Below are positions 14,003-54,062 of a DNA stretch of 64,000 bases, piece by piece (the first letter of the stretch is position 1; each line of letters starts with the position of its first letter). The notes under the pieces were generated by a model. The model was not told where the DNA came from, did not search any database, and saw only the letters and a list, made by a program, of their open reading frames with translations. The position numbers and the translations under genes are program-made. The stretch is from Euglena gracilis (lineage: Eukaryota). The DNA is taken from assembly GCA_039621445.1 (NCBI GenBank), contig CP154954.1:39269816-39333815 (forward strand), in the 5' to 3' direction.

Positions 14003-14071
14003 ATTTGCCCCGGGGGGTATAAACGCGTAACATTCACATAAAACACACACATTCTCCAAAACGAAATCTTT

Positions 14072-27792: not shown

Positions 27793-30700
27793 CTTTCACC
27801 AAGGGGGGTGTTGGTATGAACCCGTACCGAAAAAGTAGTGCAATGCGACAACCAGTGTCAATGAGAATTTTGACTTTTGCACAAAAATTTTGGCTTCTGA
27901 TTTCCGCTTGGGCCAAAAGTTCCATGGGGGGTAAGCAAAGTGAAGGTTCTGGCGAAAATACGTTTTCTTGCCAGCTTTCCCATGAACCCTTTCCGACTTT
28001 GCACAACATTCCGAGCGGAAAGTTGGAGTGGGGGGTGGGGGACCCGAAAATTTTCCGGGTACCGACCAGTAAGGTCGGTACCCGGGGGGGCAGGGTTGAT
28101 CAGGTCCTACCTCCATCTGTTCATCAGCCCACAGGTCCGTGCCCTCGGACCTCGGACTCCCCTACTCCTGGTCCGGACCGGCCGAATAGCCGGCTACGGG
28201 CCTTTTAGAGGTGTAAACGGATTTCAACGTGTGCACCGCCATGCGGGCCTCGTCGAAATCGGTATCCGTGGTCTCATCCCCCTCCCTGCCCGAAGCCGGG
28301 GTGTCATCCTCCAAACAAGATATCTTGAAACCGACTTTATGGCGGTTGGAGGAATGACCCTTGTCACCGCGATTCATACCGCGATGACGTTGGCTAGGGC
28401 GGGGAGAACGAGAACGCGGACACTTGGATGAGTGGTGACCACTCGATCCACAAAGCGAACACTGAGATTTGTGTCGCGAATCTGGATAACGGGGGGATCG
28501 GTTTCCCGATTTCCCGTCAAACCGTCGTGGTGACCGGGTATCCCGTCGACCATGACCGGTGTATCGGGGTTTTCCCAATGAGGATCGCGAAGAGGATGAT
28601 CCGCTTCGCGAACGCGATCGCGATGTCTCGCGATAAGAATCACGCTTCTTGGCAGGGGCACCGGGTGACCTGCCCCGAGGGGTACCGTGTTTCCGCTCAT
28701 CGCGGAACGGGATCCGGGGGCTAATACCACCGGAACGGGGACCCGATGACCGTGAATTGCCCGATTGGCGTGAAAACGCGGAGGAATCCAAACCCCGTGA
28801 CGAGGTCGAGCCTCGCGGACTCTGACCACGCTTTTGTGCTTCAGGGTTAGGACATTCCCGAGACATATGCCCCGATTTGTAGCACAGAAAGCACACTTTA
28901 TCCGTGGCTTGGTCCGAAGAACGCGGGTATCACGTTTTCGTTACCGTGTTTGGTGAAGTGGGTGAAACCGGTGATTTTTGCAATGCGTTCACTGAACCAG
29001 CCGGTAATCCCGCGGTTGGGTGTACGGTATACGCGGATTGAATCTGACCAAGAAGCTGTGATAGCTTCAACTGCTTGGAAACGTAATTCCAGCGTTGGTG
29101 GATATGGATATCCAGCGTTCAAGGATATGGATATCCTTGAGGAGGCTAGGCGTGAAATGCATGAGAACAGCGTCAAACTGTTCGTGCATTTGCTTTTCAC
29201 TGAGTTCATCACTTCAGCAGCAAGTCCTAACCATTTGGTATACCAAAGGTCAATGGACTTCCACTTGCGATCGGGTGGAACGCATTGCCGCCACTTGGTC
29301 TCTAGGGTGATCCTAGCGACCAAACTTGAGCTGGTGGAAGCGTATTGCTCTACAACGTCATCAAAGGAAACGCGGTAGCGAATGACGAGTTGTCGCGCGC
29401 GCTCCTTCTCATCCCTTGGGAGGCAATCGATGAATTCCATCTTGATCACCTCCGGGTTTGGGTCCTGGGTTGGCCCCTTCAATGCCCAGTAGTACACCCA
29501 GTCCCGGAAAAACTGTCTCCATGTGGTTGGATCACCATCCCATTGGGGTTTCACCTTGTTCGCGATTGCGATTGTGCCTTTGAAGTCTTTCTGAGAAACC
29601 CAACGACCCTCGGTGGTATTCCGCGGTTTTGGGCCTGGGTACGCTCGAGCACCAAGCGTATCCTGTCCGGATTCTTGTCGGAATAGCGAAATTTCTGGTG
29701 AAGGTGAATCCTGGTACCGGATATCCGGTCGCAAACCCTGTTGGTAACCCGTAATAGGGGGACACTCCGGTGTGGGGGTATGTCGCGCATACAACATGTG
29801 ACCCACTCCCGGTGTACGGGTTTGGCTCATCCCACGCACAAGCATGGAATGATGGATTTCTTGGTGGAGACTTGGCGGAATCGCCGTGTTTTCCGAAAAT
29901 TCGGTTCCCGTAATGGGATGTTCATCCGAAAACTAGGTTTGGGTTGTGGGCAAGGCCAATGGTGGCACAATTCGCGGAATCGCGGATTGTGACACGTGGG
30001 ACACGGGTGGTGGTGGTGCATGTGCACCTGGAGTCGGGGTGTGGAAACGCGACTCTGGAACATTCGGCGCGTCTTCGGCAATGCATACTGTCGAATCACG
30101 ATGTGGAACCCGCTGTTGGTTGGACACATTATCCAAACCGACAGACAAGTCATGCACACTTTGCTCCAAATGCTCAACGAGCTGGAGTTGGCCGCAAATA
30201 CGGTCAACCTCATCCTCCAAAGCGCGAATACGCTTGCGGTCACAGGAAAAATCATCTGTGTGCGGAATCCTTTCGGAAATTCCGGTGACATCTTGGACAA
30301 GTTTCCCGTGAGACTCATCCAATAGTTGGAGTTGTCCCGTTAATGCTTTTACAGCTGTTGAGAGAATCTGCAAAGGTGGTGTTACCTTGGATGGTGTGGT
30401 AGTGGGTGCAACCGGTGTAGGGTTATCCGATACCGGGGTTGTGCTACCCACGGGCAAATTTCCGGGTTGTGGCTTATCCAGAAACGCGGAAATTCGCTCA
30501 TCCAACCTGGTAATCTCACCTTGCGTGGATCGGGCATTCCGATTCACCGATTCCTCAAGCCGTAATAGGCTGTTGCAGAAACCTTGCAAAGTTTCCTGAT
30601 TGTCAGTGAGCATTTTGTCATAAAATGCCTTGAAATCAGGGTTCTCGGTAATCCGTGAAATGGAACCTGCAGGCAAAGACTGCATTTCCATAATTTTGGT

Positions 30701-30975
30701 AGACACCGGTGCATACCGGGTCTGGAGTTCCCCAATAGCAGTCTGAATACCGCTATTGTCCGGGACTCGGTGGGAAAGTGCGGAATAGCTTTGTTGCAAA
30801 CCCGCAATGGCCGAGTTAATCCCGCCAACGTCGGACTGCAACTGCAACTGCAGGGATTCCTGCCGTTGTGCCATTTTTGCGACTTTCGCGCTCAGATTGG
30901 ATAATCCAACCTGATTCGCGTCATAATAGCAGGTTTTCTCCTCCAAATGGGAAAGTCGCTCCTCCAACTGCGGCA
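27793..30975 (-). pseudogene. gag: Family B gag (partial) and protease N-terminus, frameshifted
   Basis: KPQWDGDPTTWRQFF, CFLCYKSGHMSREC, CSLCGSSGHHSSKC, TAG at 28162-28164, KILIDTGCRIAL. Confidence 0.88.
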
Positions 30976-32544
30976 TTTTTGGAATGGGAATTTGTGGAAC
31001 AAAGTCAGCCAAAAACCTGTTAAAAACCTCATTTTTCCAGTCCGGGGGACCCCCGGACCCCCCCCCCTCGGGGGGAGCGGGTCTAGCTAGTCCACTTCTT
31101 CCAGTGTCTAGTCGATTGGCTAGCCGGTACCCCCCCCGGGGGGTCCTTAAGCAAAAGCCTGGTCGGGAACCAAAATCTTGTGAAATGTGTCATAAAGCTT
31201 TTGATGCCGTTCCCCTTGAGGGATAACTGGAAAAGGAAAACCCTGTGGAGGATGTTCGCTAACCTCTCATCCTTGGGCAAGAGCACACCTCAACCCCCTC
31301 TGCACCCTTCGATCGAATTTCCAATACCCACATCTTTTCTGTTCATTTCCTGGAAAATTTGCCTCAATCTCACACTTGAAAATGATCCAGTATTTCATCC
31401 AGTTCACCGATTGCCATTTTTCTGTTTGCCCCCAATTGACCCCCCCCCCCAATTGCCTTTGGGGCATTTGTTCAAACGGTTCCGGCAAAAATGGCGTTTT
31501 TGGTGGTGGGGAACCCAGCCGACCTGGTCCCGGGGGCTGGTCACGTTTTTTTTTGGCACCCCCCGGTTCTTGGCATTGGGGCAATCTGGCCACGACCATC
31601 ACGCCCCCACCCTGATTAACACAGAAAAAATTACCAAGATTTCATTTTTGTGGCCCGTTGAACCCTGTGCTAATGGGGTTTGGGGGGGTCAGCTGGTCCA
31701 ACATTTTGGCACTCCCCCCCCAAGTTCTTGGCATTGAGGCAATCCCCGTCCCACAATTTGCCCGTTGTTTCTGGGGCAAAAAGAAACATATGTTCAGTAA
31801 TTTTGCGTTTCGCACCAGGCGGGCGGGAGGGCATTTTTGCCATTGCGTCCCAGAGAACCAGTGCCCCCCGTCACTCCCCTCCTTTGGTGGTGTGCAGGGC
31901 GAGGACGTCCCCGCGTCGCCGGCGGCCCACACCCTCCCCCCCCTTCCACCGCCGCCGCCACCGCATCGACGCGGGGGGCCGGCAGGGCGGCGTAGGGCAG
32001 AACCGGAATCGGCCAAAACAGCCAGGGTGGTCGGTGGATGGTTCCCCTCCCCCGCCGCCTTCTTGTACTTCAAGGAGCACCAATATCTGGATCCCAAATT
32101 TTTTTTAAGAGAATAAATCTCAGTGAAATTTGATTGTGCCAAGCTTTTCTTCACTTTTTTTTGTCTTTCGTTTCTTTCAACCCCTTTCCAAAAAGTACCA
32201 GTTTCTGAACCATGTTTTTCCAGTATTTTTGTGAAAAATTGTTGTCTTCACCTAAAAAGCATGCATTTCAACAGTTTTCCCCGGCCAAAATTTCCGTTTT
32301 CTCAAAATTGGTTGGGGGGGGGGCGACCCCCGCCCACCAGACCTTCCCGTTCTGCCGTGGGGCAGCGGGGAAGGTGGCCAGCGTTGCCGCAGCAGTCTGC
32401 CTGGCGTCCCCTTTGGTGGTGGTTTTTGCCACTTTTTTTGTTTTTTGTTGTTTGTTTTCCCAAAAGTTTGTCATTGACGTTCAATTGGCATTTCCCGAAG
32501 TTTTAGTCCGGCTTGATGTTTTTTTTTCCCGCAATGACGCAACG

Positions 32545-34898
32545 ACCGAAGCAAGAAAATGGCCGTGTGGCCGAAGCAAGCAAATGGTTGCTAGTTTAGC
32601 CGAAGCAAGCAAATGGCTGCAAGCGCACCAAAGCAAGCAAATGTCCGGTCCGGAGCAAGCAAATGGTTGCCGGTGTGATGGAAGCAAGCAAATGGCTGCA
32701 AGCAAATTGTCGGTCCAAAGCAAGCAAATGGCTGCTGGTGCGGCCGAACCAAGCTAATGGCGGGTTTGGACGAAGCAAGCGAATGGCTGCTAGTGTGGCC
32801 GAAGCAAGGAAATGGCTGCTAGGCGGCCGAAGCTAGAAAATGGCCGGAGTTGCCGAAGAAAGCTAGTAGCTGCTGGTGTTGCTGAAGCAAGCAAATGGCT
32901 GTAAGTGTGGCCGACGCAAGCAAATGGCTGCTACTGCGGCCGAAGCAAGCAAATGGCTGATAGTGCGGCCGAAGCAAGCAAATGGCTGCCGGTGCTGCCG
33001 AAGCAAGCAAATTGCCGGTGTGGTCGAAGCAAGAAAATGGCTGATACGGCGGCCGAAGCAAGCAAATGGCCAGTCTGAAGCAAGTAAATGGTTGCAAGCA
33101 CACCAAAGCAAGCAAATGGCTGCTGGCGCGGCCGAAGCAAGCAAATGGCTGATAGCGTTGCCGAAGCGCGCATATGTCCGCTAGAGCGGCCGGAGCAAGC
33201 AAATGACCGGTGTGGTCGAAGCAAGCAAATGGCTGCTAGTGCGGCCGAAGCAATCTAATGGCCGATAGTGCGGCCGAAGCAATCAAATGGCTGCTGCCAC
33301 AGCCGAAGCAAGCAAATGGCTACGGGCGGGGCCAAAGCAAACAAATGGCCGCTAGTGCGGCCGAAGCAAGCAAATGGCCTGTGTGATAAAAAAAGCAAAT
33401 GCTGGTGCGGCCGAAGCAAGCTATTGGCTATGGCTGCGAGTGCGGTTGAAGCAAACAAATGACTGCTGGTGTGGCCGAAGCAAGCAAATGGCTGCTGGTG
33501 CGGCCGAAGCAAGCCAATGGCTGCTAGTGCGGCCGAAGCAAGCAGATGCCTGATGGCGCGGCCGAAGCAAGCAAATGGCCGGTCTGAAGTAAGCAAATGG
33601 TTGCAAGCACACCAAAGCAAGAAAGTGGCCAGTCCGAAGCAGGCAAATGGCTGCTGGGGCGGCTGAAGCAAGCCAATGGCTGCTAGTGCGGCAGAAGCAA
33701 GCAAATGGCCGCTGGCGCGGCCGAAGCAAGCAAATGGCTGCTGGCGCGGCCGAAGCAACTAAAGGGCTGCTGGTGCGGCCGAAGCAAGCAAATGGCCGGT
33801 GTGGCCGAGGCAAGCAAATGGCCGGTCTGAAATAAGCAAATGGTTGCACACCAAAGCAAGAAAGTGGCCAGGCAAATGGCTGCTGGCGCGGCCGAAGCAA
33901 GCAAATTGCCGGTGTAGCCGAAGCAAGCAAATGGTTGCTAGTGCGGCCGAAGCAAGCAAATGGCTGCTATTACGGCCAAAGCAAGCAAAAATGGCCGAAG
34001 CAAGCAAAAAAAAAGTGGCTGCTACGGCGGCCGATGCAAGAAAATGGCCGCTAGTGCGGCCGAGGCAAGCAAATGGTTGCTAGTGCAGCCGAAACAAGCA
34101 AATGGTTGCTAGTTTAGCCGAAGCAAGCAAATGGCTGCAAGCGCACCAAAGCAAGCAAATGTCCGGTCCGGAGCAAGCAAATGGTTGCTGGTGTGATGGA
34201 AGCAAGCAAATGGCTGCAAGCAAATTGTCGGTCCAAGGCAAGCAAATGGCAGCTGGTGCGGCCGAACCAAGCTAATGGCGGGTGTGGACGAAGCAACCAA
34301 ATGGCTGCTAGTGTGGCCGAAGCAAGGAAATGGCTGCTAGCGTTGCAGAAGCGAGCAAATGGCTGCTAGGCGGCCGAAGCTAGCAAATGGCCGGTGTTGC
34401 CGAAGAAAGCTAGTAGCTGCTGGTGTTGCTGAAGCAAGCAAATGGCTGTAAGTGTGGCCGAAGCAAGCAAATGGCTTCTACTGCGGCCGAAGCAAGCAAA
34501 TGGCTGCTACTGCGGCCGAAGCAAGCCAATGGCTGCTAGTGCGGCCGAAGCAAGCCAATGGCTGCCGGTGCGGCCGAAGCAAGCAGATGCCTGCTGGCGC
34601 GGCCGAAACATGCAAATGGCCGGTCTGAAGTAAGCAAATGGTTGCAAGCACACCAAAGCAAGAAAGTGGCCAGTCCGAAGCAGGCAAATGGCTGCTGGGG
34701 CGGCTGAAGCAAGCAAATGGCCGCTGGTGTGGCCGAAGCAAGCACATGGCCGGTGAGGCCGAAGCAAGCAAACGGCTGCTAGTGCGGCCGAAGCAAGCAA
34801 ATGGCTGCTGGCGCGGCCAAAGCAAGCAAATGGCTTCTAGTGCGGCCGAAGCAAGCAAATGGCTGCTGGTGCGGCCGAGGCAAGCAAATGGCTGCTGG
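32545..34898. repeat. Satellite/minisatellite, ~29 bp unit, with higher-order blocks
   Basis: Consensus GCAAGCAAATGGCTGCTAGTGCGGCCGAA repeated with variants over ~2.35 kb. Confidence 0.95.
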
Positions 34899-35212
34899 TG
34901 TGTACCAGGCGTACGCTTCTGTCCCCTTCCCGTTGAGGAAGTTAGGATGGAAGCGGATCCTATTAGGATTTCCTAATGGGTGCCCCTTCTCTCTCCACAG
35001 GTGGTATTCTTTATTCTGTTTGTCTTCCTTTTCTCCGGACCGGACTTGGATATCCAGTCCGTCCTCCCTGTAATGCTCTGTGCTTTGCTTCTTGGGAAGT
35101 GGGAAAAGGGTTTTCTGTTACTCTGATTTTCAGTTCCCAAGTAGGTGCGCCAAGGCGAAAGCGAAAGCTTTTGGGAATTGGGAAAGGGGAATTGGGGAAT
35201 CAGACGTACACT
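34899..35212 (+). repeat. Family B 5' LTR (314 bp)
   Basis: TGTGTACCAGGC...GACGTACACT termini match those of the 434 bp LTRs, and a PBS follows. No second copy seen in the window. Confidence 0.78.
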
Positions 35213-35558: not shown

Positions 35559-38500
35559 ATGCAAAGCACAGGCCCCAGCCATCAATTCAACTATGCCTTA
35601 TTACAGGCATCATTGCAAGACATTGACCAAGAAACAGGGGTTTGGAAGCTTTTATGTGAAAGTGCTTCCAGTTCCTACGCCGATGAGGCAAAATTGGCTC
35701 AATTGTCAAGACTGCAACAATTGTCATCATTGACAGTGGTCGGCGATGAGCCCTCCACATTATTGGCTTCAGAGGCCAATGCGGCCTCTTCCGCACTCAC
35801 CTTGCCACAACGGGGGTATTCGCCTCTGTTTGCGGCAATGGTGCAGCTGCATACACCAGAGAGACCTGTGGTGATTCCGCCACCGGGCTTCTCTGGTGAT
35901 GGTGGACTAGAATCACCGTGTTTCTTTCAACCCCCACCCGCTCTTCCACCGGCAAACCCTTACAGAGCTTTGCCACCACCACCCGATCTTGGGTGCTATC
36001 CGGCACTGCCTTGGCAAGTGGAGACTCGTCTAGTGGTACCGGAATTCTCCGGTACATCCCAACCCATGGATGGCTAAGGGAAGGGCACTGGTGAGCTCCT
36101 CACTGCTGAGGATGTGCAGGATATCGTTGCTCGGCTTCCAGGGGATCACCCACTTGTGAGGCAGTTCAACCATGTGCAACAATGCGTTGCAGAATGTGCA
36201 ACCGCACTGAACAAAGTGCTTCAGTTTGATGAGGACAGCCAGAAACATGTCTTCACCAAGCTGGAACACTGCTGGAATTACTTGCAGGAAGTTGGCAAAT
36301 ATTGCCAGAGGAATTTTGAAAGTGCGGGTATTGACCTTGCAAACTTTCGGGAAACCTTTGACAGAATGTGCCAACAACTCCCGCAGAACTTCCGGCAAAT
36401 TAGTGAATGCATGCATGAAGCGGAAACGCGGAATGACTCCAAGTTTCTGCACTTGCATGACTCACTACAACACCTATCGGGACAAATGGAGTCCTGTTCA
36501 TCCGCGTTGTTGCATTTGCAACAACACTTGCATGCACGAGATTCCTCGTCAGCAACATCCAGTACTGGTGGATTTGTGTCTATGGACCATTTCACCACCC
36601 TATCCGCAACTTTCCATGAATCGCAACACCGCATTATGCTGTTGTGCGATGAAACGGTAAATTTTCGGCTATTCCAGTCACAAGCCAACGAGAATTTTGC
36701 TCCCCACACGTATGTGCGGCAGTTGGAGGAGTGACTTTCCCGTTTTGAGCAGAAAACCTGCTATTGTGACGCGAATCAGGTTGGATTATCCAATCTGAGC
36801 GCGAAAGTCGCGGAAATGGAACAACGGCAGGAATCCCTGCAGTTGCAGTTGCAGTCCGACGTTGGCGGGATTAACTCGGCCATTGCGGGTTTGCAACAAA
36901 GCTATTCCGCACTTTCCCACCGAGTTCCGGACATTAGCGGTATTCAGACAGCTATTGGGGAACTCCAGACCCGGTATGCATCGGTGTCTACCAAATTAAC
37001 GGAAATGCAGTCTTTGCCAGCAGATTCCAGTTCACGGATTACCAAGAACTAGAAACCTAATTTCAAGGCATTTTATGACAAAATGCTCACCGACAATCAG
37101 GAAACCTTGCAAGATTTTTGCAACAGCCTATTACGGCTTGAAGAATCGGTGAATCGGAATGCCCGATCCACGCATGGTGAGATTACCAGGTTGGACGAGC
37201 GAATTTCCGCGTTTTTGGATAAGCCACAACCCGGAAATTTGCCCGTGGGTACCACAAACACGTTGTCGGATGACCCTGCACCGGTTGTACCCACTACCAC
37301 ACCAACCGAGGTGACACCACCTTTGCAGATTCTCTCAAAAGCTGTAAAAGCATTAACGGGACAACTCCAATTACTGGATGAGTCTCACGGGAAACTTGTC
37401 CAAGATGTCACCGGAATTTCCGAAAGAATTCCGCACTTGGATGACTTTTCCCGTTACCGCAAGCGTATTCGCGCTTTGGAGGATGAGGTTGACCGTATTT
37501 GCGGCCAACTGCAACTCGTTGAGCATTTGGAGCAAAGTGTGCATGACTTGTCTGTGGGTCTGGACAATGTGTCCAACCAACAGCGGGTTTCACACCGAAA
37601 TTCGGCAGTATGCATTGCCGAAGATTCGCCAAATGTTCCAGATTCGCGTTTTCACAACCCGAATCTAGGTGCACATGCACCACCACCACCCGTGTCCCGA
37701 CTGTCACAACCCGCGATTCCGCGAATTGTGCCACCATTGGCCTTGCCCAAAACCCAAAACCAGTTTTCGGATGAATTTCCCGTTAAGGGAACCGAATTTT
37801 CGGAAAACACGGCGATTCCGCCAAGTCTCCACCAAGAAATCCATCATTCCATGCTTGTGCGTGGAATGAGCCAAACCTGTACACCGGGAGTGGGTCACAT
37901 GTTGCATGCGCGACATACCCCCACACCGGAGTGTCCCCCTATTACGGGTGACCAACAGGGTTTGGGAACGGATTTCCGGTACCAGGATTCACCTTCACCA
38001 GAAATTTCGCTATTCCGACAAGAATCCGGAAAGGATACGCTTGGTGCTCGAGCGTACCCGGGCCCGATTCCACGGAATACCACCGAGGGTCATTGGGTTT
38101 CTCAGAAAGACTTCAAAGGCACCGTCGCAATCGCGAACAAGGTGAAACCCCAGTGGGACGGTGATCCAACCACATTGAGACAGTTTTTCCGGGACTGGGA
38201 GTATTACTGGGCATTGAAGGGGCCAACCCAGGACACAAACCCGGAGGTGATCAAGATGGAATTCATCGATTGCCTCCCAAGGGATGAGAAGGAGCGCGCG
38301 CGACAACTCGTCATTCGCTATCGCGTTTCCTTTGATGACCTGGTGGAGCAATACGCTTCCACCAGTTCAAGTTTGGTCGCTAGGATTACCCTAGAGACCA
38401 AGTATCGGCAATGCGCCCCACCAGATCGCAAGTGGAAGTGCATTGACCATTGGTATGCCAAATGGTTAGGACTTGCTCCTGAAGTGGATGAACTCAGTGA

Positions 38501-39542
38501 AAAGCAAATGCGCGAACAGTTTGACGCTGTTCTCATGCATCTCACGCCTAGCCTCCTCAAGGATATCCACCGTGAGGAGTTGGCGAGTCATCCCATGACT
38601 CTTGACCAACGCTGGAATTACGTTTCCAAGCAGTTGAAGCTATCACAGCTCCTTGGTCAGATTCAATCCGCGTATACCGTACGCCCAACCGCGGGATTAC
38701 CGGCTGGTTCGGTGAACGCATTGCAAAAATCACCGGTTTCACCCACTTCACCAAACACGGTATCGAAAACGCGATACCCGCGTTCTTCGGACCAAGCCAC
38801 GGATAAAGTGTGCTTTTTGTGCAACAAATCGGGGCATATGTCTCGGGAATGTCCTAACCCTGAAGCACAAAAGCGTGGTCAAAGTCCGCGAGGCTCGACC
38901 TCATCACGGGGTTTGGATTCCTCCGCGTTTTCACGCCAATCGGGTAATTCACGGTCATCGGGTCCCCGTTCCGGTGGTATTAGCCCCCGGATCCCGTTCC
39001 GCGATGAGCGGAAACACGGTACCCCTCGGGGTAGGTCACCCGGTGCCCCTGCCAAGAAGCGTGATCCTTATCGCGAGACATCGCGATCGCGTTCACGAAG
39101 CGGATCATCCTCTTCGCGATCCTGATTGGGAAAACCCCGATACACCGGTCATGGTCGACGGGATACCCGGTCACCACGACGATTTGACGGGAAATCGGGA
39201 AACCGATCCCCCCGTTATCCATAGTCGCGACACAAATCTCGGTGTTCGCTTTGTGGATCGAGTGGTCACCACTCATCCAAATGTCCGCGTTCTCGTTCTC
39301 CCCGCTCTGGCCAACGTCATCGCGGTATGAATCGCGGTGACAAGGGTCACTCCTCCAACCGCCATAAAGTCGGTTTCAAGGTATCTTGTTTGGAGGATGA
39401 CACCCCGGCTTCGGGCAGGGAGGGGGATGAGACCACGGATACCGATTTTGACGACGCCCGCATGGCGGTGCGCACGTTGAAATCCGTTTTTACCTCTAAA
39501 AGGCCCATAGCCGGCTATTCGGCCGGTTCGGACCTGGAGTAG
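35559..39542 (+). pseudogene. gag: Family B gag with several premature stops and frameshifts
   Basis: ORF pieces 35559-36077, 36114-36734, 36816-37052, 37083-39125, 39327-39542 are collinear with the intact gag at 23534-27040; two CCHC knuckles. Confidence 0.88.
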
Positions 39543-42500
39543 GGGAGCCCGAGGTCGGAGGGCACGGACCTCTGGGCTGATGAACAGATGGAGGTAGGAC
39601 CTGATCAACCCTGCCCCCCCCCTGCCCATCTGCCTTCCTGGTCGGTACGCGGAAAATTTTCGGGTCCCCCACCCCCCACAACAACTTTCCGCTCGGAATT
39701 TTTGTGCAAAGTAGGAAAGGGTTCATGGGAAAGCTGGCAAGAAAACGTATTTTCGCCAGACCCTTCACTTTGCTTACCCCCCATGGAACTTATGGTCCAA
39801 GCGGAAATCAAAACCCAAAAATTTTTGTGCAAAAGTCAAAATTCTCATTGACACTGGTTGCCGCATTGCACTACTTTTTGGGTTCGGGTTGATACCGACC
39901 ACCCTCTTGGTGAAAGCCAAGAAGCCGATCAAAGTAACGACGGCTGACAACACCCCCATGTGCGGTGGTGACTTGTGATGCATTTTGGACTTAGTCCTAC
40001 CCCTCATCCCCAAGCACCACTCACACCCCCCACAACCGCAAAATTTTCCGGATACCTGGGGATAAGAATCCGGAATGCATGGGTCTGACGTAATTCTGGG
40101 ATGCCCCTTTTTACGTCAGCACCGGCTGGTAGTGTATTGCCACTCCAACGGTTTCCGCACATCACCGTTCTCTTCATTGCCCCCCAAACCCTCATCACCC
40201 GTGGCGTCAACCACAACAGCCACCAATTTTTGCACACAGTTTTCGAAAACTTTTACCCCGTTACCAACCACACCTACCAACGTTTTCTACACCGGGTGTA
40301 CCGAGAGAGTTCACCCCCTGCCCATCCACACACCAACTTCCGTTCCCCACGAGGCAGGGCAAGCAAGTAGCGGTACCCCTCGTTCCACTGGGTTACAAGA
40401 CGAAAGCCCAAAGGCCTGAAGTAATTACGGTGTCGAGTAGTCGCCCAGCTGCACCAATACCCCGTTTTCCACCAGATGTATCGCTTTCAGATACATCTGT
40501 ACACCCCCCAGCAGCTACAAAAGCGCATTCCAACTTTTACACACACCCCCACCAGACCAACATGCGCGACCAGGACCACTACTCCGACACTTCCTTCCAA
40601 TGTGTGCACTGTAGGAGAATTTCCGCCCAGCCAGATTTCGATTGTGGATGTTTAGTCCAAACGCCAACACTAATACCGATTTCGCGTACCCATACACTTG
40701 GTTGCGGATCGCAATGCGCGACCGTACATCAAGTGCTACAACAACGAGGTATTGCCTTGTTGTTTGGGACCGCGAAATCCGTGTCACACACCTCCACCAC
40801 CTCCATCTGGCATGTTATGGCCTGGGTATGCACCCATCCAACCCATCATTCCTTGGGAATGCCCCTTGGGAGTGTGGATGACACACCCTTGGCCTATGTT
40901 TGCGGTTCCCTGAATTGCGTTACCGCTCTTCAACCCGCAAACCAGGTCGATACATACGCGATACGCGTATGGAACGCATTTAATTTTGGTCAATACCGTA
41001 TTTTGGAGGAATGGTTCTCCAAAATCGCGGCTTTGGCTGATTCCTTCGATTTGTCGTTGGAAATTGATGCGTTTTCATCACAAGCGCATGCACGCTTTTC
41101 GCGACATTGGTCGCGACACTCCAATGCATTCCTTAAATTTTGGGGTGATACGGTGCTTTGGTTGAACCCTCCCCCAAAACTTCTTCCGGATGTGGTGGAG
41201 AAAATCCTCCGCGATGAAGCGCGAGGATCTCTCCTCATACCCGTCAATCCGAATGCGCATTGGTTTCATCAACTATCCTATGTCTGTTTTCATTGGTGGG
41301 ATTTACCCGCTGATGTACCACTATTCGAGGACTTTTGTGGTATATTTTTACCACCTGTTAAAGAAATCATTTTTCGCGTTTGTTTCTTTGACACATTCGG
41401 TATATCCGATTTGCGTGTGCCAAGATACCTTGGTACCAATGGGGATGCCACACCCTCAACGCAGATTTCTGGCGGTTATTGAGAGTGCGGACCAACACCC
41501 CAAGTCTGCTGACTATTGTTCGCGTTTTACTCGCGAATTCCATGGTGTACTGGATAACCCAGTTTACGCCTGCGACATCGACCCCGCGATTCGCGTTCTG
41601 TTCGGTGTTTGCAAAATCGAGCTCAAGGATGGCGCTAAGCCCATGCACGGGAAATTCTTCCGTTGTTCGGTTAAACGCGAACAAGCTCTCAACGAGATGA
41701 TTGAGAAGCTCATCCAGCGGAAGTGGATTATCCCTTCCAAGAGCGAATGGACATCACAAGCTTTTGTAGTGCCCAAACCCGCTGACCAGTCTGGTCAGAA
41801 GAAGTGGAGACTGGTGCTGGATTACCGGTACCTGAACTCCCAAACGAAGGATGACCCCTTCCCGTTACTGCTGATCGAGGATTTGATCACCAAACAATCG
41901 GATAACAGGTTGTGGTCAATCTTTGATCTAGAAGACGGTTTTCATCAGATGCATTTGCACCCGATTCACAACCGTACACGGCATTCGTGACATCCAAGGG
42001 TGTGTGCCAATGGACGGTACTCCCTATGGGTGTTAAGAATGGCCCAGCCATGTTTCAACGCATGATCCAGTGGGTTTTGCGCGATTTACCGTTCGCTCTG
42101 GTGTACATCGATGATGTACTGGTGGGAACCCAACCGCCATCCGCGAAATCGGGCAAGGATATCCTCGAACCGCATTATCGCGATGTGCGGGCGGTATTAT
42201 CCGCGTTCAAAAAGCAATGTGCTTTTTGTGAAGGGTTCCAAAATGCACCTGTTTCGCAAAATTGTTGAGTTTTGCGGGCATATCCTGAGCAACGGGCAGC
42301 GTCAAGCCGCACCCAGCAAGATGGAGGCCACTAAGAAATGGACTCCTGAGGTCACTAAGACCTTAACGCATTTAAAGGGATTTTTGGGATTAGCCCAATA
42401 CTACGCGATTTACATCTAAGATTTCGCGAAAATCGCGGTACCCCTAACCCGACAACTCAAAAATCGGACACCCGATAACGCAAAAGTCATTTGGGATGAC

Positions 42501-44673
42501 CAAATGCGCGAGGCCTTGAATAAAATCAAGGACTTGCTCCTCGAGAACGTGGTTCTCGATATCGCGGATCCATACAAACCGTATGTCCTGGAGGTCGACA
42601 GCAGCGATTACGCTGTTGGCGGGGTTCTTAGACAGCATAATGTGGCGAATGAACTCCGACCTCTGGCTTTCTTTAGCAGGAAGCTACACGGCGACAACAG
42701 CAAAGGACAGGTTAAACGGAGCGTTCGCGAAAAGGAGACATACGCCATTGTGCTTATTCTCCAGAAATTCCGCAGCTGGATAGCCAGCAGCCTGGTCCAG
42801 ATACTGGTGTTGACGGATCATGAGAGCCTTCAACACTGGTATACCGAGGACCTGAACAAGGCCATGTCATCAGTTGGCAGACGATGCCGATGGCATGAGT
42901 TCTTGAGCCAGTTTAACCTGGTGGTATTTTATACCCCAGGTCATACGCAAAAAGTGGCGGATCCTCTCAGCCGAGCCCCCTGGTATTATCCTGGGAACCC
43001 GGATGAGGGTGATGCGACTTTTCATGGCAGCCATGGGGCTGACCAGTTCGCACGTCGATCCGACGCTGTGGACAACATGCTCGACTCACTACCCGTTTCC
43101 CGGGTGTATCGCAGCATTGCCATTTCACCATTGCGTGGAAGGCGCCGGCGTGGACGCACTGCCGGACCCCGTCGCATTACGCGTACGGAAACTCCTACCC
43201 CCCTATTTTTCCGCGAATGGGATTATTCGCGTGACCTTGTATATAGTACCATTGTGAATAGACTCCGTAATAGTGAGTCCATAGAGAATTACTCTCTATC
43301 ACCATTGCGACCTATCTTCCGGCATGCTTCTGGTTATAAATATTGTATACCCCAAGACCTGGTTGATGATGTGATTTTGAGCTATCACAACCATGGTCAC
43401 CCTGGGGCCCTGAAACTTCTTTCACTGGTGGGTCGCAGATATTGCACAACCCTGAGTGAAAAAGATTTATATTCGCGCTGTTTGCGAATTTCGCAGCGGT
43501 GCCCAATTTGTCAGGCTGTGAAACCGCGCAGAGGTACCCCCCCTGGTACGATGGATTCTTTCCCCGTACCACCGGACATTTTTACGTCCCTCTGCATGGA
43601 TTTTCTCGAACTCGAACCTTGCAAAGGATCAGATGACAAAATTTACGATTACGTTTTTGTTGTCGTCTGTCGGCTGAGTGGGTACATAGTAGCCATTCCA
43701 TGCCGGAAAGCAGGGTTGACAGCCCAAATTTTGGCATCCATATTCCTGAAAAAATGTATCTGCTTAATGGGTTTACCGAACGAAATAGTGAGTGATCAAG
43801 ATCACTTGATCTCGTCGCGGTTTTTCACGACTTTGTGCGGTTTACTCGGTATTGAGCAGCATTTGTCCATTATATACCGCCCGAAAGGCAACGGTGGAGC
43901 TGAGGCAGCCGTGAAATCTGTTGTCAATATGCTACGCCTTTCACTGGCTGACTCGGGTAAGAATTGGATATCCATTCTTCATTGGTGTTTATTTTACATC
44001 AATACCTTGCCAGGGGTGGTATTACCACACTCACCGTATAAAATTCTTTTCGGACGAGACCCTCCGGCCATAGGGGATATCCCCTCGGAGAGACCCGCCC
44101 GAAGTAGTGTTAGCTGTGAAACGTGGTTTGCAGAAGTGGAATCAAATCCGCTCTGCAGTTCAATCACTTATCACAGAAATTCATTCCAACAAACGGAAAT
44201 CGTTTTTACAAAATTTCAACACACCTGTGTATAGTCCAGGTGACCGCGTGTGGGTACGGAATAACCGCACCCGCATGCAATCTTCCAAGCTACATCCTCT
44301 TTGGCTCGTCCCATGCGAAATTTTGAACAGGTTAGGAAGTAGCGGGCGATGTAAAGTTGCCTTGCCCAACGGGATTGAGGACGTCCATATGGACGATTTC
44401 AAACCGTACCTAAGCCCCCCAGACGGAAAAGCTATCCCCTGCTTATATTTCAAGCCCCGTTCCAGATTACCTGAAACGGACGACTTTGTGGTTGATAAGA
44501 TAATAGACCACAAGGTCAACAGGGGTGTGCACTACTGGAAAGTTCGCTGGAAGGGGTATGGGCCAGAGGAGGACACTTGGGAGCCAGCATCCAGTTTTGT
44601 TGGATACGTCCAACAGGATTGGAAGCTGTGGAACAAGCGCAATAACATAGACATAAACATAAACACTTTCTGA
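39543..44673 (+). pseudogene. pol: Family B pol (PR, Dam-like MTase, RT, RNase H, integrase, chromodomain), frameshifted
   Basis: ILIDTG (~39841-39858), WRLVLDYRYLN, YIDD (~42104), RNase H and integrase motifs, C-terminal chromodomain. Confidence 0.92.
40975..41400 (+). other. Dam-like N6-adenine MTase domain between PR and RT
   Basis: EIDAFSSQAHARFSRHW, FWGDTVLWLNPPPKLLPDVVEKILRDEARGSLLIP...HW...PADVPLFE. Collinear with the family A domain (LWMNPPWTLWPEVAEKL...PKGTKLFE). Confidence 0.8.
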
Positions 44674-44866
44674 AACGATTTCGTTTTGGAGAATGTGTGT
44701 GTTTTATGTGAATGTTCCGCGTTTATACCCCCCCCCTGCACTGCATCTTCTGTCTTTCTCACACAGTTTTTGATAAGGATAGAAGCATCTTCTTTTTCAG
44801 TGCCTAGCACTCAAAGCGACTGACAACAAGGTTATCCTTCGTTGTCGTCGTCGTTCGGGGAGCATC

Positions 44867-47759: not shown

Positions 47760-48568
47760 CGGGGTGGGAGGGGGTTGAATCCCAGCTTGCCAGCCCCATT
47801 GCTGGGTCTGCTTTTTTGCGGCGGAGGACTGACTGGTTTTTTATCTCCAAAGTGATTCTTTGTTGTTTTGCCCAGTCAGGAGTGCTTTTAGTCTTGGACC
47901 CTGAGTGTGGGGGGGTAGGGTGGGTGGTTGGGTCTGGCCAACCGCCCCCCCGGGATATATTTTTCGGCGCCGAAGGCAGGAGCCTTTTTTTTTAGGATTT
48001 TCTTTATTTTTTGGTCAATTTCATGGAAAAGTGTGTGGGGCCCATGGGGGGGACCCCCCGGTCTTAGTCCCCCCGTGTGTGAATTTCTGTTTTATTTGGA
48101 ACAGTGGAAGTGAACATGTGTGTGGGGAGGGGGGAGGGGAAATGTGTGCAAGTTTGTCGAAAATTTTTTTCCCGTTGCCAGGTGCTGAAGGCATTGGACA
48201 CTGTGGTCGAAAAATAATCTTCATGCAGGTGGGCTTTGCACAAGGTATGTCTCCAAATAAATAGATCCCGTTCCTGCAGCCATTTTCAGCCGGTCTTTGT
48301 TGTTGGTTGGCAGACAACGTTAGGAGAGAAGGGTGAGCTGGGGCTCTCTAGGGCCAGAATGATTTTCAAAAAAAGTGGCTGATTGTTCATTTTTGAAAAT
48401 CAATAGTGTTCGTCAGCGCCAGCATGGTAGCGTGCACGTGGGGGTGGGGGTGGGGGTGGGGGTGGGGGGGGGTTCGGTCGGAGCGGTGAGGGGGACCTCA
48501 CCGCGGGGCGCTGTCTAGGCCGTGATGACCGTGATCACCACGATGCCAAGCGCCCCATCCCTTTTCCA

Positions 48569-51500
48569 TCAGGTCGGTGGACCCTCAGCCGCTCGCCCAT
48601 GACGGGGTAGCGGTGCCCTCGCAGGTTGCCGCCAACAGTCCAAGGTGGACTGACGCTTTGGTGGGGGCACATCCGCCTCGGCGTCCGGAGACCGCGCCCT
48701 GGTTGACGACCTCGGCAGGGCGGGGGGCTTGGCTGACGCTGCTCGTGCCGGAGGGGCCGTCCGCCGTCTCTTCACTGGAGCCAGGTCCTCCACCGCTCGA
48801 GCCCGCCGGTGATCCGCCTCCTCCGGCGGCGCCGAGACGCGCAAATACGACAGATACTCCTTCCACCGTTGCTGGAACAGCTCGTACCAGGCAGCTGGCT
48901 CCCCGGGGGCGGGCGTCACGATCTGCACCGGCCAGCGCTGGTTGTGGCTGTCCCGCAGGCCCGGTCCCAAAGCGCCGACCACATCTCGGGGGATCATGTA
49001 ATCCCGCAGCTCGTCGTCCAGGCCCACCTGGCGACGCAGGCGTCGGGTGAAGCCCAAGACCAGCGCGGACTCCGAGCTGCCCGCGGTGGACGGGAAGGGC
49101 ATGCCCTTGTCCACCTCCCACAACAGAAGGAGCGCTTTGCTCGGCAACCCCTGCTCCACCGCCGCCGCCCGCAGGTGGGGGTGATACCGCAGCCAAGCAG
49201 CAAGGCCTGCGTCCACCTCCTCGATGGTTGCCGCTGGTCGGGGTACCGGACGGGCAGCTAGTTCGCGTTCAGCCCGCTGGCGCCATCGGTCCGCATCCCA
49301 ATGCATGCTGGGGGTGCGGTTATACAGCCACCAAACCGCCACCCAAGGAGTGCCGCTGGAGGGGGGGGCTCAGGTCCGCGGCGCCCACCAGATTGGCCAA
49401 CGCCTTGGCGAAGCCGGACAGGCGGTGAGCTGGCAAGGAGCCAGGTGTCGTGGTGTAGTGCTCCCCCACCAACTCCTCAAAGAGATCCAGAAAAACCTCC
49501 GACCGGCAGCCGCGGCTGGCAGGGAAGACCACCGTATGCTCCCGCAGCAGCACGACCAAGCGGGACTGCAGCCACCGACGGCGGAAGCTTCCACACCGTG
49601 GGGGCCCGCGGGGGGCCTGCAGGGGGCGGCGGAGCAGGGTGCTGCTGTCGCTGCCGCAGCTCCAGGGACCGCAGCTCGGGGACGCTGAGACGCAGCCCCG
49701 GGGGGAGTGCGTAGGAGGGACTGCTTGCTGCTGGCGTCGTCGACAGGTCCGCGTCGTCAGCAGGGGGTCGGTCAGAGGGCGCTGCTGCCACCACAGGGGA
49801 GGTGGCGATGAGCTCACCGCGACGGCGGAGGAGTTCAGCCGTGCGCTCAGCCAGGGCCATGTGCAGCGCCAGCATGAACCGTGCCGCATCCGCCGTTGGA
49901 AGGGCGTGGTGGTGCAGCACAGTGGAGGGGATGAGCGCCGCCAGCAGAGGGAAGCAGTGTGCCGTCAGCCAGGTCGTCGGGGGGAGCGGCACGCCGAGAT
50001 TCGAGGTGGCACAGGCCAGCGCCCACACGTCCATCAGGGCCGGGAGTGGGGGGGCAGCGCCGGTGGCCGGATAGCTCGCCAGCACGTGGGCGTCGTCCTC
50101 CGCCTCCACCCCGCAGCAGAGGCAGACAGGGGACACCACGCCGCCGATGCCGTGTCGTGCCAGACGCCCCCGAGTAGCGAGACAGCCACCACGTACACGG
50201 GCGACCCACTTGATCACCCGCGGGGCCACCTTGTGCACAAAGCCGCTGGGCTGGACCACCCGGCGGAAGATGGCGGTGGAGGAGGCCCAGTCGAAGTCCA
50301 AGCCCACAGGGAAGAGGATGTCCAGCCGGGGGCGAGGTCCCTTGGAGGACCACAGTCGCCGACAACGTCGCCACCACGCCGCCGGGAAAGAGGAGGGGAC
50401 GCTGAGCACCACCGAACCACTGCCATCCAGCAGCACAACCGGGTCGCCCGCCGGGCCCACCATCGGGACGTCCTCCGGGGGCTGGACAGACGGTGAGGTC
50501 GTCCCCGTCGCAGCCTGCTTGGCCAGGGCATCGGCAGCATCATTGCCCACCGCCTTCGGCAGTCCACGCTGGAGCCCGCGGTCGTCATGGGCCCGCACCT
50601 TCTCCAGCACCACGGGCAGGATGCACGCCTTGGCTGCTGCCAGTACCCGACGCACTTCCACTCGATCCAGGCAGCATAATCGCCGCGTCTCCGACATCGA
50701 GCCCCAGCCACGGAGGAGCTGCAGCGCGCACAGCGAGTCGGTGAGGACCTGAGATGGCTGCAAGCTCAGCGCCAGCTCCAGGGCGAGCAGTTCGCAGTGG
50801 GTGCTGCTGCGCGGGGCTGGGACGTGGAGCAGCAGGGACTCGCCATCCATTGGACGCCACACCGCGGCTCCCCCTCCTCCAGCGCAAACCGAGCCGTCCG
50901 TGAACACCGCCTGCTCATGGGGGTCGTTGATGTCGTCCGCGGTAAGCAGGGACACGCCCGTCAGTGACGGCTCCGGGAGCAACCGTGGCCAGGATGCGGA
51001 TCGGCTGCACTGCGCGTTCCGCTCGATGGACCAGCCCACCGCCGCCAGAGCAGACCGCAGCGCCAGGGAGGGCTCGCGCCACACCATGGAAGGGCAGGCC
51101 ACAGCCCGGTGGATGATGCTCGCGATGCCCTCGCCGTTCACCAGGAGGTGCAGCCAACGCAGTTGGAGCAGGCGGGCGAAGGCCATGGGGTGCAGCGGCG
51201 CGGAGTCCCCCGGCCGCCAGCCCAGCGCCACCTCCGGTGCGTTCCAAGCATTCAGCGCCAGCGGCGGCTTGGTGCACACAGCAGACTTTGCCGCAGCCAC
51301 CAGTGGGGCCAGCTGTGTGGCCGTGATGTTGCGCAGCTCACAGCCGTAGAGGGCCTTGGGCAGCACTGTCGTCCGCCACAGAACCGCGTTCAGGGCGGCG
51401 GGCAGCTGGAGGCAGCGCAATCGTTGAGCCGCGGACAGCGCCTTGTCCAGCCTGGGCAGCCAATGCGCGGAGTCCCCCACCCGGTTGGGCAGACCCAGCT

Positions 51501-54062
51501 CCACCCCGACGAAGCGGAACTCGGCCGTGGTCAGGACGGAGGAGTCGCCGATGGACACAGCCTGCCCCGGGCCCAGCGTGGACCAGACCTGGACCTTCGT
51601 GACCTTCACGCCCAGCAATGCGCACCACTCCAGGTACGCCGCGATCAGCGCCTCCACTGCCGGTTGGGATGGGGCCAGCAGCACCAGGTCGTCGGCGAAG
51701 CTGACGGATGCCACGTGGAGGCCCGCCACCTCCACCCCCAGGCGCTGAGCGGCGGCCCACCGATGGAAGGTCTCGAACAGGATGTTCAGCAAGTCGGGGC
51801 TTGCCGGGCAGCCCTGCGCGAGGCCGTCGCATGCCTGCCACGGCTCGCCGAAGACGGTGCCATAGCGGAACCGCCTGCGCACGTCCCGGTAGAACGCGGG
51901 GAATGTGGCCACCACGTCCTCCGGCACGCCCGCCTGCCACAGGACCCGGAACACAGCCCACCACGGCAAGCTGTCGTAGCACTTCGCCAGGTCGAAAGAG
52001 GCCACCCACAGCTCCGCGCGGCGGTGGCGCTGCAGGCGCATGATGTCCTGAACCACCTACGCAGCATGCAGGGTACCGCGGCCCGGGCGGAAGCCGAAGG
52101 CGGTGTCCGAGAGGTAGACGGTCTGCAGAGTTGGTGTCCACGCGGTCACGATCCCCTTTGCCCACAGCCGGTACAGGACCTCGAGGACGGTGATGGGGCG
52201 TTGGTCTTGTGGGCGCGCACCTCCGGACGCCTTGGGGATCATGGCCACGTACGCGTCCAGCCAGCAGGAGGGCCACCGCTGCTGCGCCTGCACCAGCGTC
52301 AGCAGACGCGCGACGGCCTCCGGCCACGGAGGTGGCAGCGACCTCCACACCGCGATGGGGAACCCGGCCAGACCCGGCGCAGCACCTTCCCGCATCGAAC
52401 GCAGGGCCGCAGACACCCGCGCTGCAGTCCAGGGCGAGGAGGGCCATGTGGTGACGGGAATGTAGGTGCCGAAGCGGGAGCCGATGAACGCCCTCCAGCG
52501 CTCCTCTTCATCTAGCCCCGCATGTTGCCGCAGCACCTAGTCGACCCAGAAAGCGCGCACAGCCCCATCCACAGCCGCCGCGGTGAGGCACTGCTGCCCC
52601 GAGGCGTCCAGGACAGGGCGCGAGCCCCACGGCACCCCAGGGGTCTGCAGCCACCGTTGGATCACGCCCAGGTCCTCCTTCCACAAGCGGGGCAGCACAG
52701 CCTTGAACCGCTTGCAACGCTCCGCACGATGGCGCCGCAGGAGGGCTTGCAGGTCTGGGAGTCGGGCAGAGATGGCGTTCTGCACTGCCGCTGCCAGCAC
52801 AGCCACCGGCACATCCCGCGGCAGGGCCACCCCACGGCGCTCCAGGTCGTCGAGCAGAGCCATCCAGTGGTGTGGCCAGCAGCCGGGGGACGAGGCATCC
52901 AGCAGCGCGCGGGGGCACTGCGCAGCCAGGCGGTGAAGGACATCCAGCTGGCCGCGGAGGCAGCGTACCTCCTTGGAGTCGTACGCCAAGCGCCGCTTGC
53001 GGGGCCGCACAGTCCAGCCGCCAGCCAACGACACCAGGTGCTCCAGCGCCGCACGGAGAGCAGCCGCGAGGGAGTCGAGCGACTCGCAGGTTGGGGATGG
53101 AGTGCCACGACAGCCGGGGAGAGCAGCCAGCGCTCCACGAGGTCGGACCACTACGCAAGGTCGGAGGAGGCTTCATAGAGCAGCGGCGGGGGGCGAGGGC
53201 GAGGCGGCTGCCAGTCAATGCGGCCCGCGTCGAGGGACAAAGACACCAGCACAGGGCAATGGCCGCCGTCATTGAGCCCCTCGAGGACCGAGGCCTCCCG
53301 AACCAGCCGCATCGCCGCGATGTTGGCCAGGACCAGATCGATCCGTGATGCCATTGTCGATCCACCAGAGCCGGGCTGGTGGTACGTGAAGGGCAGTGGC
53401 GCCGGCAGCAGCAGTCGATGGACATCCACCCAGGGACGACCAGGGCCAAGGAGATCGGCGAGCAGGCTGCAGGGAGGGCGGCGGCCGGAGTTGAGGAAGT
53501 CGGTTGCTGGGCTCAGGGACCCATTGAAGTCGCCCAGCAGCAGCGTGGGCACCTGCATGTCCAGGGCGAAGACCAGCGCTGCGAACTCCAGGTCGAAGGG
53601 GCGGCGCTCTGCTTGGTGTGCGAGTGGCGCGTAGACGGACAGCAAGAGCAGCCCCAGCGGCAGTCCGGGACGTGGGGCGAGACGCACTCCATGCAGTCGT
53701 CGCATCGCGTGCAGGCGACGCCATGCGGGGCAGGCCGGCATGGCAGGGAGGACGGCGATGTCCTGGCGCCAGAGGAAGCCCACGCCGCAAGACTTCCCGT
53801 GCTCGGAGCGGTTGGTCGACTGCACAGGACGCCCATGGTGCAGATGAAGACCAGCATTTGCCGCTGTCGTGTGGGCGGAGAGCAGCGGCACCTGCGCCAG
53901 GTGCGTCTCCTGCACCGCCAGCACGTCAGCCGACACCAAAGCAGCCACCATGGACACCTTCGCAGCCGTCCAGTGGCTCATGTTCCAGGTCGCGACCCGC
54001 AGCACCGAGGCCGGGACTCCTCCAGGGGGGGCAGCAGCCCCCGACAGCAAGTTCTCAGGCAT
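48569..54062 (-). pseudogene. LINE ORF2: AP endonuclease, RT, RNase H, C-terminal zinc-binding remnant; 3 in-frame TAGs and frameshifts
   Basis: VATWN, AVQETH, SVYAP, LGDFN, SRIDLV (APE); RPITVL, GFRPGR, DLAKCYD, QGCPASP, FADD (RT); FTDGS, ELLAL, TDS, KVRAH, GNDAADALAK (RNase H); CLCC...EDDAHVL. Confidence 0.92.

Follow-up and report, generated by a model that had tools for sequence, protein, structure and literature searches.

We analyzed a stretch of 64,000 nucleotides from Euglena gracilis (assembly GCA_039621445.1, contig CP154954.1, positions 39,269,816–39,333,815 of the forward strand), referred to below as the window and numbered from its first nucleotide. Self-comparison and Pfam scans show that retroelements make up nearly the whole of it. 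Two gypsy-type families, A and B, carry a domain related to the adenine methyltransferase Dam. This report deals mainly with the domain of family B, which lies between the protease (PR) and the reverse transcriptase (RT) and has a non-canonical motif IV. Family B is present in two copies, B1 and B2, arranged head to head and 95.5% and 93.6% identical in self-blastn.

Organization of family B

The features of the two copies are listed below (MT, methyltransferase domain; ORF, open reading frame). Relatives from the database searches are denoted by P numbers.

36715–44733, + strand: copy B2 (segment common with B1), with gag, PR, linker, MT, RT, RNase H and integrase (self-blastn, Pfam)
37053–39125, + strand: gag-like ORF of B2, with a CCHC zinc knuckle at 38811–38852 (Pfam zf-CCHC, E 2.7e-5)
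39243–39284, + strand: second CCHC knuckle of B2, in the ORF after the gag-like ORF
39784–40161, + strand: aspartic protease of B2, with ILIDTGC (DTG starting at 39850) and then VILGCPFL; split over two frames
40162–40927, + strand: Pro/Thr/His-rich linker of B2 between PR and MT (translation)
40928–41407, + strand: Dam-like methyltransferase-fold domain of B2 (160 aa), in the frame of ORF 40133–41482; Pfam-matched stretch approximately 41027–41272
41165–41176, + strand: motif IV of B2, N-P-P-P (AAC CCT CCC CCA)
41470–41471, + strand: 1-nt insertion private to B2 (B1/B2 alignment), which throws the RT out of frame with the MT
41472–42172, + strand: RT of B2 (Pfam RVT_1), with further frameshifts; P0008 aligns at 74% over 164 aa
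42420–44234, + strand: ORF of B2 with RNase H and integrase (H2C2 and rve; Pfam)
14012–18825, − strand: 3′ part of copy B1, with MT, RT, RNase H and integrase (self-blastn, Pfam)
27793–30975, − strand: 5′ part of copy B1, from gag to PR (self-blastn), split off by a nested element at 18825–27792
17331–17809, − strand: Dam-like domain of B1, in tblastn pieces of 84.8% and 75.6% identity; split over two frames
17572–17561, − strand: motif IV of B1, N-P-P-P (AAC CCT CCC CCT)

The two protease motifs of B2 fall in separate ORFs (39715–39978 and 40066–40419), and the protease of P0008 aligns across both, to 39784–40161 (35.9% over 145 aa, E 1.2e-19, tblastn). In addition to the insertion in B2, B1 has a private 1-nt deletion just downstream of its motif IV. 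Once these two private indels are set aside, the MT and RT share one frame, and in P0005 and P0008 the MT reads through to the RT within a single ORF. Thus, the Dam-like domain follows the protease and directly precedes the RT in both copies, as the sequence-only reading of this DNA had proposed. That reading also held that family B lacks a recognizable C5 DNA methyltransferase (DNMT), and this is confirmed: none was found in Pfam scans of the B ORFs, and a tblastn search of the window with a DNMT-bearing relative matched only family A (862–1285). The order PR-RT-RNase H-integrase (rve) and a gag with a CCHC knuckle place family B with the Ty3/gypsy elements; no long terminal direct repeats, the remaining hallmark, were found in it.

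Homology and predicted fold of the B domain

Within its ORF, the B2 domain matches the Pfam family PF05869 (Dam) with an E value of 4.6e-4 (20.3 bits). Searched alone, it matches with an E value of 6.5e-5 (23.1 bits). Only profile positions 20–105 of 169 are matched, and both scores fall short of the gathering score of 28.1 bits. It is 30% identical over 96 aa to the family A domain (1529–1813, E 1.9e-10). A HMMER search of 1.84 billion representative proteins with the B domain returned 392 matches at E≤1e-3, 87 of them at E≤1e-10. In an alignment of 49 rows (B2, A and 47 short matches), PF05869 is matched at E≤1e-3 by 40 members, the best at 2.6e-12, so that the homology of the B domain to PF05869 Dam is supported transitively. 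Word-indexed protein searches with the B domain gave no matches although HMMER gives hundreds, and these blanks carry no weight; a sequence search of the PDB with the B and A domains gave no meaningful match.

An AlphaFold2 model of the B2 domain, built from the 49-row alignment, has a pLDDT of 94.2 and a pTM of 0.88 and shows the class I S-adenosylmethionine-dependent methyltransferase fold. Foldseek comparison of this model with the PDB found nothing at E≤1e-3; KsgA gave the best E value (1.4e-3), and PCIF1 gave TMq values of 0.59–0.61. In a VIA-align search, adenine-N6 methyltransferases rank first: PCIF1 (Z 10.9), PH1948 (9.6), METTL5 (8.8), KsgA (8.5), T4 Dam (8.2), M.TaqI (7.9) and EcoDam (7.8). 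As the stated background of such searches is approximately Z 7–8, these scores of 7.8–10.9 are only modestly above it and back the fold class, not a function. The adenine-N6 methyltransferases PCIF1/CAPAM, METTL5, KsgA/DIMT1, T4 Dam and M.TaqI are only 8–16% identical in sequence to the B2 model. The NPPP motif follows strand 76–79 of the model, the usual place of motif IV in the methyltransferase fold. Sequence relationship and predicted structure therefore both identify the B domain as a Dam-like, PF05869-related methyltransferase-fold domain. Since the region aligns to the family A domain and its modeled fold matches adenine methyltransferases, the earlier assignment to the amino-methyltransferases, placed differently in A and B, is upheld.

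Motif IV is non-canonical throughout the nearest relatives

Motif IV of N6-adenine methyltransferases has the form (D/N/S)-P-P-(Y/F/W), and its aromatic residue stacks on the flipped adenine. Both window copies of family B depart from this form, reading NPPP directly after Trp-Leu (WLNPPP). Among the 150 best matches to the B domain, 151 stretches were aligned, 139 of which cover the four motif positions; the fourth residue is Phe in 79, Trp in 10, Tyr in seven and Pro in four.

For an MT tree of 87 rows, we took the 85 of the 150 matches in which 100 or more residues were aligned, and added A and B2. Family B falls within a clade of 22 rows (SH-aLRT 91), none of which has the canonical [NDS]PP[FWY]. 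The motif is likewise absent from all 31 rows of the next larger clade, and is present in 34 of the 56 remaining rows. Motifs in the 22-row clade include NPPI, NPPV, NPPL, NPPH, NPPQ, NPPA, NPHY, HPPF, HPMF and YPPI. Of the representatives, P0016 has the highest similarity to B2 (69% identity over its 78 matched residues) and reads M-H-P-P-P; P0052 has HPPP. When elements are grouped by their RT instead, B's clade has 20 MTs, five of them canonical, versus 27 of 28 elsewhere, counts that are not phylogenetically independent. The non-canonical MTs of B's RT clade include NAP[FW] (seven), HCPR (four) and HGSL (one). Thus, the loss of the aromatic residue does predate the divergence of B1 and B2, as had been suggested from the two copies, and it reaches much deeper than these; decay peculiar to individual copies does not account for it, given that no canonical motif is found among the 22 nearest MT relatives.

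Some relatives have features of their own. P0121, of 483 aa, carries two Dam-like stretches in tandem, one with NPPH and the other with NPPF. The PR-MT-RT polyproteins P0238 and P0222 represent clusters of 2,833 and 4,545 sequences, from contigs of up to 5 Mb, with HCPR or HGSL as motif IV; they are high-copy families with a fully degenerate motif, apparently of other eukaryotic genomes.

Family B in public read sets

Parts of the stretch are contained in 20 of 24 listed public runs, with at most 0.49 of the sampled words. We aligned Logan contigs from two DNA runs and two RNA-library runs to positions 39700–42000 at ≥80% identity. The DNA runs placed 18,176 and 22,643 contigs, indicating that family B is very abundant, and the RNA-library runs placed 92 and 66; as DNA carry-over is possible, the latter were not counted as expression. 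The first motif codon carries A>C at 41165, replacing Asn with His, in 85 and 83 contigs that make up approximately 99.8% of the summed depth of the two DNA runs, and in all contigs (two and two) of the RNA-library runs. Contigs also carry T>A at 41162 (Leu to Met). No majority change was seen at the fourth motif codon among the 40 best-supported of 408 contig differences, which is not proof that this codon is unchanged. At 41471, 20 and 19 contigs of the DNA runs, with the lesser share of the summed depth there, lack the nucleotide inserted in B2, as does the only contig that each RNA-library run has at this place.

His in nearly all of the contig depth and HPPP in P0016 and P0052 indicate that NPPP did not arise in the window copies by decay from a canonical motif. 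The bulk of family B seems to be even further from the canonical motif than B1 and B2.

The domain is under purifying selection

The ratio of nonsynonymous to synonymous substitution (dN/dS) between B1 and B2, by the method of Nei and Gojobori, is 0.39 for gag, 0.36 for the MT, 0.45 for the RT and 0.35 for RNase H-integrase; the linker, which serves as an internal control, gives 0.88. Of the MT changes, 15 of 36 are synonymous versus 22% expected (binomial P 0.006). In the 22-row MT clade, Asp47, Phe49, Trp72, Pro81, Gly100, Pro105 and Trp123 are each at least 95% conserved. The median ratio of MT to RT patristic distance in a six-row group containing B (see below) is 1.12, not above those of canonical groups (2.38 and 2.78). 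In P0277, a continuous polyprotein of 1677 aa, the RT, RNase H, integrase and a chromodomain follow a B-like MT that has 46% identity (E 4e-38) and the motif HPMF. The B domain is thus shown to be under purifying selection, and a dN/dS below 1 argues that part of the divergence between B1 and B2 arose in active elements.

These results bear on the idea that the domain is a functionless relic, with NPPP the product of neutral decay after the copies of a once canonical family had died. Such decay would fit the pseudogenized state of both window copies and the very many diverged copies in the read sets. We nevertheless regard it as improbable, the least probable of the explanations considered here, as dN/dS is lower in the MT than in the adjacent linker, motif IV alone varies among otherwise conserved structural positions, and the family alignment yields a confidently predicted fold. 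Furthermore, ORFs run continuously through the degenerate domain in P0005, P0008, P0021 and P0277, and non-canonical motifs are common to the whole clade at 40–50% identity.

Family A and the usual position of the domain

Family A occupies the beginning of the window and carries both kinds of methyltransferase.

1–14002: family A (self-comparison, Pfam)
862–1285, + strand: C5-DNMT (tblastn with relatives)
1358–1870, + strand: Dam-like domain (Pfam Dam 39.4 bits, above the gathering score; tblastn with five relatives)
1652–1663, + strand: motif IV, NPPW, canonical
1964–2389, + strand: protease (tblastn with relatives)

A single ORF of 1615 aa (1217–6061) encodes the end of the C5-DNMT, Dam, protease, RT, RNase H, integrase and chromodomain (Pfam), and its RT-RNase H part is 100% identical to the protein eukprot:EG_transcript_113. 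The segment from the RT to the 3′ end (5.86 kb) is present as a tandem duplicate (2301–8142 and 8141–14002, 98.7% identity), which may be genuine or may reflect an artefact of assembly; the DNMT, Dam and PR lie upstream of the first unit only.

The sequence-only reading described the domain of family B as lying in a different position from that of family A; judged by the relatives, B is not the unusual one. Another retroelement domain was detectable with window-derived queries in 28 of the 150 best matches to the B domain. PR precedes the MT in all 22 with both detected, and the MT precedes the RT in 16 of 16. RNase H precedes the MT, as in DIRS elements, in one of the 28; the other 27 are compatible with PR-MT-RT. 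Family A has the order DNMT-MT-PR, whereas its five nearest MT relatives all have PR ahead of the MT. PR-MT-RT is therefore the usual position of the domain among the relatives, and family A is the rearranged one.

A search with the RT-RNase H of family A found 337 polyproteins, the best 120 of which were listed and 119 analyzed. Their domain orders include PR-MT-RT, DNMT-MT-PR, PR-MT-DNMT, DNMT-PR-MT, MT-PR-DNMT and RT-RNase H-MT-integrase, among others, and the DNMT and MT modules appear to move both between and within gypsy lineages. In an RT tree of 121 rows (FastTree, RT stretches under 140 aa dropped), family B falls in a clade of 25 rows (support 97) in which the MT stands directly before the RT wherever a row extends sufficiently upstream, except in one row with PR and RT and no MT. 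In our best reading, family B is a Ty3/gypsy-type, chromovirus-related retrotransposon of a widespread lineage with a Dam-like domain between PR and RT, in frame with the RT.

Descent of the domain in families A and B

To follow the history of the domain, MT and RT trees were compared for the same 48 elements, each represented in the RT tree and having 95 aa or more of MT. (Trees of nine taxa for MT and RT were too poorly resolved to decide anything, and those of 48 and 121 rows were used instead.) B, P0008, P0021, P0059, P0037 and P0033 form a group in both trees, with support of 97 in the MT tree; P0008 is the sister of B in both. Monophyly of the 20 MTs of B's RT clade is not rejected by the MT data (log-likelihood difference 0.06, P value of the approximately unbiased test, p-AU, 0.48). 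This agreement argues that the B domain descended vertically with its RT and was not captured separately by B.

Family A behaves differently. Its MT group (seven rows, DNMT-MT-PR) is sister, with support of 99, to seven PR-MT-DNMT elements that fall elsewhere in the RT tree, in another clade. This MT-based grouping is rejected by the RT data (log-likelihood difference 140.7, p-AU 1e-40). Conversely, a single clade for the MTs that accompany A's RT clade is rejected by the MT data (difference 66.1, p-AU 6e-5). The distance from A to P0214 is 1.44 in the RT and 1.33 in the MT; within-group MT/RT ratios are 2.4–2.8. The conflict indicates that the methyltransferase module of A was exchanged between gypsy lineages. 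The comparison of MT and RT phylogenies that had been proposed thus gives congruence for B and conflict for A. Accordingly, the suggestion that two co-resident families acquired the domain by independent capture or by shuffling stands, as exchange, for family A; separate capture is not supported for B.

The observations point to vertical descent of B's MT with its RT within the sampled gypsy elements, DIRS domains being barely sampled. An alternative is that the co-resident families represent two captures, B having obtained its MT separately from A, with a DIRS element as one conceivable donor. In the MT tree, a wide distance lies between the domains of A and B, and a recent preprint on LTR (long terminal repeat) elements carrying the DAM domain (Fernandez-Moreno et al., bioRxiv 10.64898/2026.05.21.726589, 22 May 2026), in its accessible text, infers at least four DIRS-to-LTR transfers and describes Euglena as complex, with two mixed DIRS/LTR clades. 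Against these stand the tracking of the RT by the B domain within the gypsy elements, the PR-MT-RT order that different MT clades have in common, those with relatives of A's MT among them, and the single DIRS-like RNase H-MT order in 28 multi-domain matches. We consider two captures unlikely at the level sampled here, and possible at deeper levels, where DIRS sampling is sparse.

Comparison with known methyltransferase-bearing elements

The methyltransferase domain of DIRS1-group retrotransposons was reportedly described by Goodwin and Poulter. Two further sources mention it (PMC9940879; 10.64898/2026.05.21.726589). Family B shares with these elements the domain family, whose pattern is D-x-F-A ... 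N-P-P-aromatic. In DIRS elements, the MT follows RT and RNase H and a tyrosine recombinase is present; in family B, the MT precedes the RT and the integrase is of the rve type. Neither a tyrosine recombinase nor the order RT-RNase H-MT was found in B, although no search was aimed at the recombinase. Phage and bacterial Dam proteins have the PF05869 sequence family and the methyltransferase fold in common with B; the B domain differs in lacking the aromatic residue of motif IV and in being embedded in a polyprotein.

The closest comparison is with the DAM-LTRs of the preprint, as far as its available text describes them. There, DAM domains are reported from LTR elements outside the DIRS group, together with repeated DIRS-to-LTR transfers, modular exchange of the DAM domain, and ‘EpiLTRs’ combining DAM, DNMT and chromodomain, and the preprint names E. 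gracilis as a host both of DAM-LTRs and of such elements (10.64898/2026.05.21.726589). The EpiLTR combination matches family A. Family B resembles the DAM-LTRs in being a Ty3/gypsy-like, non-DIRS, integrase-bearing element with a PF05869-type DAM domain together with RVT_1. It differs in two respects: the B2 domain, at E 6.5e-5, fails the preprint's HMM cut-off of 1e-5 as well as the Pfam threshold, and its motif IV lacks the aromatic residue, whereas the preprint describes a preserved catalytic pocket with Asn-Pro-Pro and the following aromatic well conserved. The text of the preprint, in its available part, makes no mention of the position of the protease or of inactive or degenerate subclades; its figures and supplements may include families like B. 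DAM-carrying LTR elements, including dual-methyltransferase ones in E. gracilis, are thus already known from this source. What is added here is a PR-MT-RT branch with a degenerate motif in a constrained domain, its vertical inheritance in B, and the exchange of modules in A.

A proposed role for the degenerate domain

We propose that family B carries a vertically inherited, Dam-derived module in the order PR-MT-RT, which has been retained with a degenerate motif IV and is probably catalytically impaired. This is the best explanation available and, in our judgment, a reasonably probable one. Motif IV would have degenerated within B's branch, whereas the remainder of the domain was kept, with its fold, its D-x-F motif and its conserved positions (Trp, Pro and Lys). 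After processing, the MT domain would stay on the N-terminus of the RT and could bind nucleic acid, and perhaps S-adenosylmethionine, or act as a scaffold, transferring few or no methyl groups itself. This would resemble the support that the pseudo-enzyme METTL14 gives to METTL3. Methyl transfer is expected to be impaired because motif IV lacks the aromatic residue and, in most copies, also the Asn. A catalytically altered or purely binding domain, as the sequence-only reading had suggested, is the reading that we prefer.

Alternatively, the B domain could retain adenine methyltransferase activity despite its non-canonical motif IV and mark element cDNA or integrated copies with N6-methyladenine (6mA). 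The intact N-P-P core of B1 and B2, the conserved fold and D-x-F motif, and the purifying selection on the domain would all be accommodated by such an activity. Several observations make it unlikely. Asn is also replaced in most related contigs, and close relatives vary at the aromatic site (Ile, Val, Leu, Pro, His, Gln, Ala), suggesting lost constraint rather than a new catalytic solution. To our knowledge, all characterized active N6-adenine methyltransferases have an aromatic residue at the fourth position of motif IV. The accessible text of the preprint cuts both ways: 6mA self-marking is proposed for DAM-LTRs, and more of their insertions are 6mA-methylated than those of other LTR elements, E. 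gracilis included, yet eukaryotic DAMs with canonical motifs gave no 6mA when expressed in E. coli (10.64898/2026.05.21.726589).

Returning to the impaired, retained module that we favor, a number of points weigh against it. The loss of catalysis is deduced from a single motif, whose Asn-Pro-Pro core is intact in both window copies, and its fourth codon in the bulk of the copies is deduced rather than read. Both copies are pseudogenized, with frameshifts and an in-frame stop in the RT. No terminal direct repeats were found at the ends of the segment common to B1 and B2 (the end-to-end local alignment of B2 scores 23, versus a maximum of 27 in 30 shuffles), and the copies may be truncated; they may also be two arms of one inverted duplication. 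For the MT, only 36 changes underlie the dN/dS, and the Nei-Gojobori method is a simple one. In the 87-row MT tree, clades have SH-aLRT supports of 86–92, under the star threshold of the tool. The searches started from the MT of B and the RT of A, so that the matches are not a random sample, and the relatives come from metagenome and read-set assemblies that may include decayed copies. Finally, the fusion of the domain to the RT after processing is part of the working model.

A bolder extension, which we hold to be possible and somewhat doubtful, is that the whole PR-MT-RT gypsy clade carries a selected, Dam-derived pseudo-methyltransferase that has lost catalysis, stays on the RT and reads or binds adenine, 6mA or nucleic acid, perhaps acting with the active Dam of co-resident dual-methyltransferase elements such as family A. 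METTL14 is the catalytically dead partner of METTL3, with the motif EPPL, and acts as a substrate-binding scaffold. METTL14 and the B domain have in common an adenine-methyltransferase fold with a degenerate motif IV; they belong to different methyltransferase families, and the likeness is by analogy only, no partner enzyme being in evidence here. If the extension were correct, retroelements would have their own version of the way in which METTL3 and METTL14 divide their labor.

If the degenerate branch holds, the benefit of the domain in it cannot be methyl transfer alone, and this branch includes a family of very high copy number in the present genome. The coexistence of the canonical family A, which the analysis identifies as the one built by module exchange, with the degenerate family B in one genome provides a natural contrast for experiments.

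Other features of the window

Rfam and tRNA scans of the window found no RNA genes. The remaining features are mostly further repeats.

18825–27792: LTR element nested inside copy B1, with LTRs of 434 bp (100% identical) and a 6-bp target duplication, CTTTCA
32543–34900: tandem array of diverged 29-bp repeats, approximately 2.3 kb long, within the 5.7 kb that separate the head-to-head B copies
48000–56000: block of approximately 70% G+C (approximately 50% elsewhere), with an 859-aa ORF on the − strand (49480–52056) that has RVT_1 and a cellular-type RNase H (PF00075)
62648–63563, − strand: third, more diverged B-like fragment, an integrase end approximately 78% identical to 43701–44621

The composition and domains of the G+C-rich block suggest a non-LTR retroelement of very different composition. 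The nested element has an ORF of 1222 aa (23537–27202, − strand) with no Pfam retroelement domain, and pol was not detected in it. Parts of the element are 74–77% identical in DNA to the gag and linker regions of B, and it may be a young non-autonomous derivative mobilized by B-type elements.

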